Source: a virus (lineage: Duplodnaviria > Caudoviricetes). From it: a DNA stretch of 64,000 nt. The DNA is taken from positions 128,001 through 192,000 of IMG/VR virus record IMGVR_UViG_3300046820_001270; one strand, written 5' to 3'. The position numbers and the translations under genes were made by a program. The notes beneath the pieces are model-generated. The model was given only the letters and a program-made list of their open reading frames with translations, did no database searches and was not told the origin of the DNA. Positions 8,516-22,811 of the stretch are shown in pieces (position 1 is the stretch's first letter; every line of letters starts with the position of its first letter).

Positions 8516-9253
8516 TATGTCTCCGACATCCGTGTCGGGAACATCCTGTTTATCCCCCGAAGGACCCGTTAGGGTCCGCAGTAATCGGTACAAATATAGT
8601 ACAAAAATCCCACCTTTAGACCCCTGAAAATTACCCCTAATTTATCCCCGATATTGACCCCTGTAGAGGGGTTTTATTTGTACCTTTTTATCGTAGGGTT
8701 TAAATTGGTCTAATAATCCCACTTTTACTAATATTTATTGATTGTAGATATCCCAGCGTCATTTTGGGGAGAAAGTGGGGAAAAGTGGTAGTATGTGGGG
8801 ATTGACCCTCGACCGAAGTAAGGACCATATCCTAAAAAATTTGAATATATAACTGTAATACGGGGTCCTTCGGACCCCTTCAGGTCTGTCATAGTGTCAT
8901 ATATAGTTATATATAATAACCCTTTATATATGTAATACGGTGATCTGTAATACCTTACATTCTATTTAACATAAAGTACGTTATAGGTTCACAAGTTATC
9001 CACATTACTGACCCTTGTCATACACCCTGAAGGGACGACCGTAGGATCGTCCCGTAATACTTGCCAAACAATATCAGGGAAATTAATGTTTAACCATTTA
9101 AGTGTAATACTTACACAAAACTTGCCAAACAATATTACAGGTCTTTTGGGCCAAACACATTTGTCCGTCATACATCCGTTCGTCTACGGTAATACATAAA
9201 ACCTGAAGGGGACCCTATGGGTCCCCGAAAGTAAGCTTATTATGTAATACGAA
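8516..9253. other. non-coding convergent junction with GC-rich hairpins and GTAATAC repeats
   Basis: no credible ORF; hairpins GGACCCGTTAGGGTCC, GGGGTCCTTCGGACCCC, GGGGACCCTATGGGTCCCC; strand switch. Confidence 0.55.
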
Positions 9254-10162
9254 TTAATATCCTATGTCGAAGTTCTTAAAACGTTTCTTTAGATATTCAC
9301 GGAATTCTTTTTGTTCCTCGTCAGACAGAGGTGATTCCTCGGGGGAGTTCTTTTTACCATCAACAATTTCCCACCCAAAGTTACAGGTGATTTCGAAGTT
9401 AGGATGTAATACCTTATCGGCTCTATTGTAGTTAAACTTATCTTGATGTATCACAAACCCCTTGGACCAATCATGTGGTTCGAACAATTCATATGTATGA
9501 CCTCTCCATGTTCCTCTCTTCAGTGCGTTATACACAGACCTGGCTTTCTTTACCAACTTGGACATTGCCAGAGAATATCCGTCTGAGAAGGTTGGAAGAT
9601 CCCCTTGGGTTAAACTATACGTATTTAACAGATGTGATCTTGAGAACATGATACCACCGAACTTTTGTGGGGACAGAAGTTTCAAGTTATACGTCGGAGT
9701 ATCCATGTAGTCCCTTAGGTGAAGTATACCTTGACCAGGATGGACAGATATATTCTGTAATTTCAAATGATAACAATCAATTAGATCAGGAGGATAGATC
9801 GATGGTTTATTCATTAGATCAGGATTAATCTTAAGTAGACTATCGACGAAGTCAGCTACAGATACCTGTAGGATATTCAAAGGGATCTCAGGATTTGGGT
9901 TCATGTTTGGCATGTAGTCAATTCTAAGATTGATCTCCCCAAGATACTTCTCCTCATTATACCTAACAAAGGTGTATGGTATTTGGTCCAATTGAACTGA
10001 ATAATGTATCTCACCTTCAGGTATTTGGAACTTCCTATAGAACATATGTTCCTTCTTAAACTTCTGCACAGTCTGCACGAATTTTTCACTGGCAAACTTA
10101 AACTTGTCATTAGGGATATTATCCTGTTCCTCCGTTAATCCTTTTAATTTACTTAGTCTCAT
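9254..10162 (-). CDS. 'KAKTVYKALKKG' family protein with extra N-terminal domain
   Basis: KKARSVYNALKRG...KKRFKNFDI; TATTTATA upstream on minus strand. Confidence 0.7.
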   Translation of the reverse strand: MRLSKLKGLTEEQDNIPNDKFKFASEKFVQTVQKFKKEHMFYRKFQIPEGEIHYSVQLDQIPYTFVRYNEEKYLGEINLRIDYMPNMNPNPEIPLNILQVSVADFVDSLLKINPDLMNKPSIYPPDLIDCYHLKLQNISVHPGQGILHLRDYMDTPTYNLKLLSPQKFGGIMFSRSHLLNTYSLTQGDLPTFSDGYSLAMSKLVKKARSVYNALKRGTWRGHTYELFEPHDWSKGFVIHQDKFNYNRADKVLHPNFEITCNFGWEIVDGKKNSPEESPLSDEEQKEFREYLKKRFKNFDIGY

Positions 10163-10282
10163 AGTATATAAATATTGCCAAACAACATTGGATCGATCAG
10201 ATCCTGAAGTTCCTGTTGTTCCTAATGTACCATATGTTCCTGATGTTTCTTGCCAAACAATATCAGCATCCTGCGTCTTCGA

Positions 10283-10540
10283 TCAGGATAGTGGTTCTAC
10301 AGATACAGTTCGTCTATTGTTCTTACCAGTCTTGAAGGTCATTATACCATCTGCTGTAGCAAATAGTGTATGATCAGAACCCATACCGACATTGCTGCCA
10401 GGATAGTACTGTGTTCCTCTCTGGCGGATGAGGATGTTACCAGCTCGTGCTGACTGTCCACCGTGGATCTTTAATCCTAATCTTTTGCTGTGTGAATCAC
10501 GACCGTTCTTTACGGACCCTTCACCTTTCTTGTGTGCCAT
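10283..10540 (-). CDS. rpmA: 50S ribosomal protein bL27 (phage-encoded)
   Basis: [27 protein letters not shown]...[10 protein letters not shown]...PG.NVG.G.DHTLFA..DG: full-length L27 signature. Confidence 0.95.
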
Positions 10541-10574
10541 ATTCTTTTGTTATTTACTGTTTACTATAAATAAT

Positions 10575-10600
10575 AAACCCCCCACAATAGTGGAGGGTCC
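10575..10600 (-). terminator. intrinsic terminator upstream of rpmA
   Basis: minus strand CCCTCCAC-TATT-GTGGGGG followed by TTT. Confidence 0.6.
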
Positions 10601-10623
10601 ATTATTGTTCGTCTATAATACGA

Positions 10624-10821
10624 TTACGCCGTCTTCAATAATTGGTTACGGAAAGTAATTGCTGTTCTCTTGTTTGAGAAGTTCTTAGAGATCTTATTAC
10701 CGTTAACAGATGCTCTTACGCGGTATGAACTACCGTCGAAATATACATTGTTAGATACTGGTACATAAGTTGTCTTGGTGCGACGAGCTGTACTCTTACG
10801 AGTTGTTGTTGTTTTTTTCAT
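10624..10821 (-). CDS. small basic AP2-like DNA-binding protein
   Basis: NNVYFDGSSYRVRASVNGNKISKNFSNKRTAITFRNQL resembles the AP2 three-strand/helix pattern; start at MKKTT. Confidence 0.5.
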   Translation of the reverse strand: MKKTTTTRKSTARRTKTTYVPVSNNVYFDGSSYRVRASVNGNKISKNFSNKRTAITFRNQLLKTA

Positions 10822-11061
10822 AATCATTAATTGTTTATAATAAAATATAACACCAATTATTGATAATAAAAAATTTAAGGCAACTTTTTTTTGGATTTCT
10901 CGAAATTTAATTTGCCAAACAACATTCCACAGACTCACTGTCCCGATCAGTACTTCTCCTCTACATGATCATACCACACATCTCCCCACTTACCACACAT
11001 GTAGTTGAAGTGTTCCTCAGTACTCATGAGGTAGTAAAGGATATGTTTGTCCCATATGAAC

Positions 11062-20994: not shown

Positions 20995-21000
20995 TTTAAT

Positions 21001-21213
21001 TTAATTTAATACTTCAAAAATATCTTTACCAATAATAAGACCTAAGGTACGACCATTATCCCATTTAACATTGACAACATCAAAACCAACATTGTAAACA
21101 ACTCCTTCACGACCAACCAAAATTGGTTGTGGGTCATCTTCCATTGGTTCAATAAGTCTAACTCTTTTACCCATTAATATTTGTGGGTTTACAAGAACAT
21201 CATTTACTATCAT
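21001..21213 (-). CDS. small SH3-like protein (DUF4314-like)
   Basis: GKRVRLI.PM.DDP.P...G..G.V...VKWDNGRTLGLI.G.D. Confidence 0.65.
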   Translation of the reverse strand: MIVNDVLVNPQILMGKRVRLIEPMEDDPQPILVGREGVVYNVGFDVVNVKWDNGRTLGLIIGKDIFEVLN

Positions 21214-21214
21214 A

Positions 21215-21364
21215 TTATTTAATTTTAGAGATTTTTAATTTGATACCATAAACAACTAAATTGATTAACGATAAAACGAATAGACAAACACAAATACTCC
21301 AAAAGATAAAGATAAACTTTTGAACTCCCTCTAATTGATTGTAGATTTCTTGATACATAAACAT
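21215..21364 (-). CDS. small membrane protein (49 aa)
   Basis: single TM segment FIFIFWSICVCLFVLSLINLVVYGI; promoter 21392-21422 upstream. Confidence 0.5.
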   Translation of the reverse strand: MFMYQEIYNQLEGVQKFIFIFWSICVCLFVLSLINLVVYGIKLKISKIK

Positions 21365-21391
21365 TTATTTATTTGATTAACTAATATTACA

Positions 21392-21422
21392 CGAAGGTAA
21401 TACAAAGTTTTGATATCACAAA
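21392..21422 (-). promoter_or_regulatory. Bacteroidota-type promoter
   Basis: TTTG-N19-TACCTTCG. Confidence 0.65.
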
Positions 21423-21829
21423 TTTATTTAGAATATTTTTTATTTTTTTTCATACCTGTCGTCCACACTCGAATATTGATTGGCATGTATGACAAAACCC
21501 CCAACATCCTGATCGTCGTCCTAAACTTGTTTGGCATATACGATAATATCCGTAGATATCCGAAACCATATCCGAAATTGCCACACAACATTACAAAACA
21601 AGCAGACTCAAGGGGGTTTGTATGACAAAGTTTGCCAAACAACAATTTTCCCGTCGGAGAACCTCCTCTTCAAATTTATTTTGTTAAAGGATTTGCCAAA
21701 CCATATTAGAGATGACGATGACATCTCTTGGTGTATGACAATTGCCAAACAACAATTCCTGGAAGGAGACGAATATGGTCAAAAAAAACCCCCACCTTTC
21801 GGTGAGGGTCGGTTAGTGGGGGAACTAAC

Positions 21830-22387
21830 CTAATCAATAATTGTGTACTCTTGTTTGAGTATTTTAATTCTCTTGATATTGTCTAAACTTAATACCTTAT
21901 AATTTAAGGTATTCTCTAAACCATTTTGATACTTTGAATAGTCGGTCTTTGTATCAATCATATATTGTTGGAACAATAACTTTTCAATACTATTACCCTC
22001 AATCAAATATCTTGTGTCAAGATAACTACTATTGTGGTCTTGATATCTAAAGTAGAATTTAGTCGGGTCGGACTTTAAAAATACTAAAGATTTAGAAACC
22101 AACTGATAAGGACTTTCTTTTTTATCCTCATTCACAATAGGGGTAATTCCCTCTTTCTTATACTTTCGTTCTAATTGTTCATCATAATCAAAACCCGTTT
22201 GGATATTTGATAACTTTTGTTCAATCAAAACCTTATCGTAATAAGGGTTAGGATTTTGTTTACCACTTGTCTTGAAGTCAAGGTACTTGTTCATCTTAAC
22301 TTTTTTTAATGTTGTCAATCCCACATTAGGGACAAAGATATCTATACCTGATAGTATATCTTTTAGTTCAGTTTTAATAATGTTCAT
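21830..22387 (-). CDS. hypothetical phage protein
   Basis: 185 aa ORF; terminator at 21781-21810. Confidence 0.7.
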   Translation of the reverse strand: MNIIKTELKDILSGIDIFVPNVGLTTLKKVKMNKYLDFKTSGKQNPNPYYDKVLIEQKLSNIQTGFDYDEQLERKYKKEGITPIVNEDKKESPYQLVSKSLVFLKSDPTKFYFRYQDHNSSYLDTRYLIEGNSIEKLLFQQYMIDTKTDYSKYQNGLENTLNYKVLSLDNIKRIKILKQEYTIID

Positions 22388-22811
22388 ATCTTATTGTTTG
22401 TTCCCACAAAGTTAATGTATATACCAATACAAAGTTAGAATATACAAATAAAGTTATCCACATTCTATTGTTAATAACTTGGGGGTTCACCTTCGGGAAC
22501 TAATGTGGTTTGGCAAACTCTTGAGAACGAACCTTGATGGGATACTCCATTATTGTTTGGCAGGTCGGGTAAGGTATTGATAGTCAAAGGGTTAGGGGTA
22601 GGTAGGACTGATAGGGGTGGTGTACCCCCTCCCCCCTCCCGTATCCCCCCTTTATATAGTGTTTTAGGGGGGTCTATAACAGGGGGTCAATGCCACGACT
22701 GAAATTTTTCCAGAAAAAAAGTGAAAAAAGGGTCTTTACCCCTAAAAGTGATTTAAAAATTTTCCAGAATTTTTTGGAAGTAATGAGTATTTATATAACA
22801 AAGAACATCAT
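22388..22811. other. non-coding divergent junction with C/G tracts
   Basis: GGGGTGGTGTACCCCTCCCCCCTCCG, CCCCCC..GGGGGG, duplicated AAATTTTTCCAGAA; strand switch. Confidence 0.5.

Follow-up and report, generated by a model that had tools for sequence, protein, structure and literature searches.

A repeated, lineage-variable candidate protein-binding site ahead of the early-island promoters of giant Bacteroidota phages

A minus-strand gene island in a 64,000-nucleotide stretch of Caudoviricetes DNA (positions 128,001 to 192,000 of the IMG/VR record IMGVR_UViG_3300046820_001270; hereafter "the window") carries a dense array of the decanucleotide TGCCAAWCAA. We propose, with a probability of roughly 0.55, that this motif is the core of an asymmetric 15-bp protein-binding site, which would act as a shared upstream control element of the host-RNA-polymerase promoters of the early gene cassettes and would be read by a dedicated protein. 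The proposal was derived by comparing the nucleotide and protein sequences of the window with those of related phages.

The exact motif occurs 39 times in the window (25 copies on the plus strand and 14 on the minus strand), always between positions 9062 and 22562, as compared to 0.29 ± 0.56 copies, and at most three, in shuffled sequences. With up to one mismatch allowed, 49 copies are found in the island versus five in the remaining 50 kb. The island itself is a block of minus-strand genes, at whose two ends (near 8.5 and 22.4 kb) the GC skew reverses. These counts bear out the sequence-only reading, an earlier model-made annotation of the window, which had estimated 35-40 copies in 13.5 kb and confinement to the island: the other 50 kb of the window contain no exact copy at all. 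A megablast search against known phages gave no match; for comparison, we gathered about 160 loci from IMG/VR using the palindrome pattern and two proteins encoded in the island, one ParB-like and the other AP2-like, several of the retrieved records being incomplete. In a complete relative of 335,630 bp (G005, about 86% identical at the nucleotide level in the island), 32 of the 34 exact copies fall within 22.3-40.3 kb, and four more whole or partial relatives confine their own version of the motif equally strictly, so that in each of five whole or partial genomes the respective version is restricted to a single island of 20-30 kb.

Alignment of the 39 copies reveals the asymmetric 15-bp site R-A-T-R-TTGWTTGGCA-A. 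On its TTG side, an outer flank of 15-20 bp (positions -6 to -21) has about 50-60% G+C in a genome of 32% G+C and is enriched in CAG/CTG and GATC. This flank folds no better than its shuffled versions (mean z -0.08), and an RNA or DNA hairpin in it was ruled out on these grounds. Along the minus strand, the intergenic regions share a common order of elements: a terminator hairpin, one or more sites, TTAACA boxes, a -7 box resembling TAnnTTTG, the leader ACCTTTAtaCtCTAAA and the ATG codon. The first site comes 35-54 nt past the end of the terminator stem, often with the heptamer GTATTAC after it, and is followed by a head-to-head pair, along with additional sites that are mirrored in orientation. 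A terminator scan detected 19 terminator-like sites versus 6.5 ± 2.9 in shuffled sequences, and most copies of the motif indeed lie between such hairpins and the next gene start, as had been claimed. A scan for sigma-70-type promoters detected no enrichment (63 versus 61), which fits promoters of the Bacteroidota type. By our assignments, which rest on the consensus and were read by eye, the -7 box lies 40-50 nt ahead of the ATG codon and the promoter-nearest site ends 49-75 nt upstream of that box (values of 49-52, 60 and 71-75). The leader is shared among the cassettes, and together with TTAACA-N5-TTAACA boxes near the promoters it recurs ahead of start codons between 14146 and 21400 on the minus strand.

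All five head-to-head palindromes described previously are present as TTGWTTGGCA-N-TGCCAAACAA on the plus strand, with spacers of 2, 2, 1, 2 and 2 bp (at 16310/16322, 17447/17459, 18582/18593, 19423/19435 and 19933/19945, respectively); these tight palindromes account for only 10 of the 39 copies. Copies inside open reading frames (ORFs) were likewise confirmed (12309, 12465, 12731, 15081 and 16721); the first two of these precede the start of the following gene (12149) by 160-320 bp, and the intergenic gap of that gene measures only 58 bp. The likening of the array to iterons did not hold: the sites are dispersed over about 12 promoter regions and 13.5 kb, mostly as inverted pairs, and iterons of a replication origin were thus ruled out. 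As to the suggested marker of first-injected DNA, the contigs begin at arbitrary points and carry no flagged end repeats.

The mutual arrangement of the sites follows the helical repeat of DNA. Among 14 clade representatives, neighbouring sites form 85 head-to-head, 10 tail-to-tail and 52 direct pairs (binomial p 6e-16), and the head-to-head spacings group at 2, 13, 22-23, 33-36, 41-43 and 56 bp, with a 10.5-bp periodicity (Rayleigh R 0.49, p 5e-7 after removal of within-locus duplicates; R 0.68, p 0.002 with one modal value per clade), all these counts including related sites that are not fully independent. In three clades (L042, L047 and L048) the sites are mostly single and in one orientation, followed by an A-rich stretch (A-tract), TTTG, 19-21 nt and TAtATTTG. 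Here 31, 41-42 or 52 nt separate the end of the site from the -7 box, that is, the distance changes in steps of one helical turn, and the sites thus show the fixed placement, in phase with the helix as counted from the core promoter, that is characteristic of operators and activator sites. The bases of the site are also conserved: in seven close relatives they are 92-98% identical versus 77-86% for the remaining aligned intergenic bases, a contrast that may be somewhat inflated by BLAST anchoring. The occurrence in both orientations, the copies within ORFs, the unfolded flanks, the helically phased inverted pairs and the conserved bases support, as the sequence-only reading had favoured, a predicted protein-binding site at the level of DNA, and neither an RNA nor a coding feature.

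Across relatives the same architecture is built with different cores, to which we refer as lineage-specific dialects: TTCTGTGGCA, ATGTTTGGCT, TAGTTTGGCA, TTCTTTGGCA and TGTTTTGGCA, and further TTAATTGGCA, TTYCTGGCA, TTACTGGGG and ATGGAATTCAT, with mixed intermediates of the form TTGT[T/G/C]TGGCA in L013 and L119. The motif of the window is unchanged in phages whose ParB-like proteins are just 42-50% identical to that of the window, and in a clade whose ParB-like proteins have 76% identity, TTGWTTGGCA is absent altogether and gATTT-TCTGTGGC(A/G) is found in the same arrangement. Ten bases are strictly retained within a lineage but change completely from one lineage to another, and this pattern points to a reader with sequence specificity, which probably co-evolves with its sites.

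Two alternative explanations of the motif have to be considered at this point. According to the first, the motif would be a recombination signal of mobile cassettes, either as PeSL-like patches of homology or as inverted sites of the hix or attC type, by which the early genes are shuffled. The island is hyperplastic, and most genes of the island with the TTCTGTGGCA dialect (T2) have no homologue in islands with the dialect of the window. Palindromes of the 10-2-10 type resemble the sites of serine invertases. The cassettes are also units of a terminator and a promoter, like PeSLs (PMC2839356, PMC4122927). However, only 10-15 bp are conserved and the adjoining flanks diverge, in some clades nearly all sites are solitary and point the same way, a recombination site would not be expected to be in phase with the promoter, and scans of the island proteins with Pfam, NCBIfam and PHROGs detected no recombinase, all of which makes this explanation quite unlikely. 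According to the second alternative, the motif would serve a phage RNA polymerase or sigma factor as a promoter, or as part of one. Lineage-specific dialects are indeed typical of promoters of phage polymerases, and a conserved block adjoining a GC-rich stretch recalls promoters of the T7 type. We nonetheless regard this as the least probable of all explanations, given that the sites occur in both orientations, including pairs 2 bp apart, that in several clades most copies would fire antisense, that the spacing between site and GTATTAC ranges from 1 to 12 nt, and that region 4.2 of the phage sigma factor is invariant across dialects.

The sequence-only reading had linked the array to the ParB-like protein as a parS-type landing or partition site, and the protein itself is a credible member of its family. 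Its model (pLDDT 80) matches Noc, ParB-CDP/CTP and KorB at E 2e-4 and probability 1.0 over about 230 columns; the DGQHR motif is invariant at G65 and R68, and the GxxR motif and the N-x-LQ(R/K) box are retained, so that, as in the ParB-parS and KorB-OB systems, a ParB-fold protein with GxxR is encoded alongside the sites. The outer half of the site (TGTTT) is similar to a parS half-site. One could therefore imagine a system of the KorB/ParB type, in which the CTP clamp of the island would be loaded onto the sites to silence the region or to organise it, the more so as KorB works from sites far upstream of promoters (PMC11790492). Nevertheless, the protein and the sites do not change together across relatives. 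The neighbour proteins on contig L117 are 80-100% identical to those of the window (DUF932 97%), yet its ParB-like allele, of 290 amino acids (aa), is 34% identical; in G005, where DUF932 is 93% identical, the allele is 51% identical and closest (63-65%) to those of phages with the ATGTTTGGCT dialect. Both L117 and G005 retain TTGTTTGGCA arrays despite these replacements. The likely recognition-helix region differs among phages with the same dialect, and the putative helix is almost the same in L012 (TTGTTTGGCA) and L016 (TTCTGTGGCA). Four records with arrays of the same design yielded no match to the ParB-like protein (the records are 39-70% complete), and 58 loci of small phages that possess the gene show background motif density and no arrays. 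Results of this kind had been named by the sequence-only reading itself as speaking against it. Finally, the fixed dimer-bound palindrome of parS and OB is lacking, the pair spacing ranging from 2 to 56 bp and some clades having nearly all sites single and in one orientation. With the motif unchanged across replaced alleles and the presence of the two so discordant, the parS/ParB interpretation fails; we ruled out the ParB-like protein as the reader, owing to allele replacement, discordant allele relationships and patterns of presence and absence, and consider a KorB/ParB-type system very unlikely. The gene is an allele-swapping hotspot in its own right, versions of 91%, 51% and 34% identity occupying the same position in near-identical islands (window; L117, L120). 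In the protein of the window, the canonical ParB E-N before LQR is replaced by M-N, and the N-terminus carries FKFR.

The second protein that had been put forward, the AP2-like one, has a topology like that of AP2 and integrase arm-binding domains, which bind asymmetric sites of about 10 bp, and it occurs in every dialect clade examined. It could in principle read the motif as a monomer. However, the proteins of L013 (TTGTTTGGCA) and L127 (TTACTGGGG) have an identical strand region, on the basis of which it was ruled out as the reader, and the structural comparisons are weak (Z 3.0-4.7; ERF1 Z 3.6, WRI1 Z 3.4, Tn916 Int-N Z 3.0), with nothing below E 0.001 in Foldseek and nothing in Pfam. We therefore find it improbable that this protein recognizes the motif. 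Its universal presence is a better fit to GTATTAC, which is itself universal, and the protein may target this heptamer.

Besides the site, the island contains a second element, the strand-specific GTATTAC, with 42 copies in the window versus 11.7 expected; 34 of the 42 lie in or adjoining the island (8855-21403, minus strand), 31 of these 34 on one strand. It is often found 1-7 nt past a site or inside an inverted pair, and all dialect clades (L011-L159) have retained it. In loci with the AP2-like gene, 322 copies are found on the gene strand versus 46 expected, as compared to 49 versus 44 in small-phage loci without it; some copies are Tyr-Tyr codons. It is tempting to consider a two-part address code, where the universal, strand-specific GTATTAC, perhaps read by the AP2-like protein, would be bracketed by convergent, phased, lineage-private sites read by a fast-evolving or swappable specificity factor. 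We give this idea a small chance of being correct. If it were, each lineage would hold its own switch over the whole set of early and anti-defence genes, amounting to regulatory immunity between co-infecting relatives, and no such system has been described for giant phages.

The reader of the sites might also be supplied by the host, as a transcription factor or nucleoid protein that boosts immediate-early promoters, with the dialects mirroring the hosts. Such a factor would be present at time zero, the phased upstream positions resemble sites of class I activators or of the Fis type, and a screen of phage ORFs (described below) yielded no reader. On the other hand, the pair spacing of 2-56 bp is unlike a fixed dimer operator, and the palindrome is nearly absent from 185,579 prokaryotic genomes, where it was found only in one phage-like contig of a Bacteroidota metagenome-assembled genome (MAG), whose assignment as the host is unproven, and in four single matches. 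Dispersed copies in this MAG (20 of about 48 were sampled) lie for the most part within open frames, without the extended consensus; they look like chance or coding occurrences. A host regulon thus finds no support in the genome-wide scan or in the sampled copies, and a host factor is in our opinion an unlikely reader.

Among other phage-encoded candidates, a stand-alone DnaA domain IV was ruled out, its DHTT signature being canonical in both TTGTTTGGCA and TTACTGGGG phages and its gene absent from G004, and so was the phage sigma factor, on account of the invariant region 4.2. The relatives encode a full sigma-70-like factor of about 270 aa, which contains that region, and a second, weakly sigma-like protein of about 234 aa (in G005 at 214.6 kb and 133.9 kb). 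Scans of the island proteins against Pfam, NCBIfam and PHROGs found no DNA-binding family; in the protein atlas, the product of 12208-12702 had no match and that of 11562-12149 corresponds to DUF4241.

As we read it, each cassette consists, in this order, of a terminator, at least one site (often a convergent pair), a promoter of the Bacteroidota -33/-7 type, the conserved leader and the gene. The mechanism that we propose rests on a single dedicated DNA-binding protein with sequence specificity, either encoded by the phage or brought in with it, which would occupy each site as a monomer. Monomers on convergent sites would touch each other on the same face of the helix, an integral number of helical turns would separate the complex from the -33 element downstream of it, and its binding would switch all promoters of the island together. 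As to the sign of control, we lean tentatively towards shut-off of the early genes, or negative feedback, because the core promoters are near consensus and look strong alone, and because the sites mark essentially all promoters of the island. Activation we hold to be possible and less probable; the phased upstream positions would equally suit a co-injected or host-encoded activator. Several observations weigh against the proposal of a dedicated regulator. A screen of 414 ORFs of G005 across five genomes found no DNA-binding protein that is conserved within the dialect and divergent outside it (median difference -2.1, standard deviation 7.5); the annotated top matches were enzymes of sugar metabolism (a UDP-galactopyranose mutase and a glycosyltransferase), the rest having no significant Pfam match. 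None of the candidate readers, whether ParB-like, AP2-like, DnaA domain IV or sigma, follows the dialects. Promoter use and timing were deduced from sequence, the pair and phasing statistics share the dependence mentioned above, and positions 50-250 bp upstream of a promoter would be unusual for a simple repressor.

Table 1. Motif sites and associated features of the island (window coordinates)
Feature	Position	Strand	Remarks
Two sites (9062, 9123), far island end	9062-9132		both TGCCAAACAA on the plus strand; each adjoins GTATTAC read on the minus strand
Two sites	10176-10260		in the 120-bp gap between genes 10283-10540 and 9254-10162
AP2-like small basic protein, 65 aa	10627-10821	-	basic tail, three strands, one helix; AP2/integrase-arm-like topology
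One site	10913-10922		about 90 bp upstream of the likely start of the AP2-like gene (10821)
Three sites (12309, 12465, 12731)	12309-12740		within ORFs 12208-12702 and 12690-12926
Host-type core promoters of the cassettes	14146-21829	-	read by eye; TTAACA boxes or TTTA at -33, TAnnTTTG-like -7 box
Four sites (14275-, 14327-, 14371+, 14787+)	14275-14796		group of three at 14275-14371 between terminator 14459-14434 and the promoter of gene 13549-14145
One site	15081-15090		within ORF 14904-15188
Five sites, including palindrome 16310/16322	16118-16380		between terminator 16444-16421 and the promoter of gene 15661-16002
One site	16721-16730		within the DUF932 gene
Three sites, including palindrome 17447/17459	17447-17554		between terminator 17619-17596 and the promoter of the DUF932 gene
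ParB/Noc/KorB-fold protein, 248 aa	17644-18390	-	inside the island; GxxR as DGQHR
Four sites upstream of the ParB-like gene	18530-18657		symmetric: site, palindrome 18582/18593, site; steps of 52-55 bp
Palindrome 19423/19435	19423-19444		between terminator 19514-19493 and the promoter of gene 18750-19316
Six sites, including palindrome 19933/19945	19933-20373		past terminator 20442-20420, ahead of gene 19539-19829
Four sites, two per orientation, convergent	21476-21752		past terminator 21810-21787, ahead of gene 21215-21364
Outermost site	22553-22562		divergent region, upstream island border

The surroundings of the sites (Table 1) include several recognizable genes and border elements. A homologue of ribosomal protein bL27 (85 aa, PF01016, E 4.9e-35) is encoded in the island at 10283-10540, and the ParB-like gene is neighboured by genes for DUF1281_C (12892-13542), DUF932 (TIGR03299, 16470-17318) and DUF4314 (21001-21213), all of them on the minus strand; such a combination is reminiscent of the leading regions that serve anti-defence in plasmids and integrative elements. 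At the upstream border (22560-22700) there are several runs of 5-7 G or C residues (e.g. GGGGGGAGGGGG) in a genome of 32% G+C, and the far border is a 740-bp gap (8516-9253), in which five or more short GC-rich stems are capped by loops of four bases and accompanied by two sites and several copies of GTATTAC; it looks like a zone of convergent terminators. Outside the island, two plus-strand ORFs (27552-30050, 832 aa, and 33285-35192, 635 aa) match HNH/homing-endonuclease families of PHROGs; most other large proteins of the window have no match in Pfam or PHROGs.

We hope that these results will be of use for the study of a large clade of giant, so far uncultured Bacteroidota phages, in which gene control is almost unstudied and in which the site would mark the whole early regulon. 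By scanning metagenomic contigs for the motif or its dialects, one can delimit the early island of host takeover (in five of the five genomes analysed here), and the dialects with their intermediates offer a natural series for investigating the joint change of a regulator and its dozens of sites. The case also warns that a repeat near a ParB-like gene should not be taken as parS by default.

By the features that we compared, the array is neither a member of the parS family nor of the iteron family, and its closest analogies lie among regulons and cassette systems. The operators of the C1 repressor of phage P1 are asymmetric, are dispersed among many promoters, either alone or in inverted pairs, and together make up one regulon, and the sites described here share all these traits; however, those of P1 overlap the core promoters and are spread genome-wide, whereas here the sites lie upstream and in a single island. 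In lambdoid immunity regions, as in this island, the regulatory layout is kept among related phages and the operator sequence differs, but there a repressor and a few operators swap as a single module, whereas here 20-60 dispersed sites differ between lineages. Sites of class I activators and of Fis likewise precede the -35/-33 element in helical phase and adjoin an A-rich stretch; the present system differs in its promoters of the host RNA polymerase -33/-7 type and in a very specific site, often in convergent pairs or larger arrays. In the KorB-OB/KorA system of plasmid RK2 (PMC11790492), a short site is likewise repeated upstream of many promoters of establishment genes and acts at a distance, as the sites of the island would, and a ParB-fold gene lies in the region, yet the OB site that KorB reads is a fixed palindrome of 13 bp, whereas here the sites are asymmetric, vary in spacing by whole turns and are not tracked by the ParB-like gene. 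The PeSL cassettes of T4-type phages (PMC2839356, PMC4122927) resemble the island in that a stem-loop and an early promoter are repeated between small, fast-changing genes of a hyperplastic region. In PeSLs, however, it is the promoter and the stem-loop themselves that are conserved, whereas here conservation resides in 10-15 bp of an additional, lineage-variable 15-bp site, which is placed upstream of the -33/-7 promoter in both orientations.

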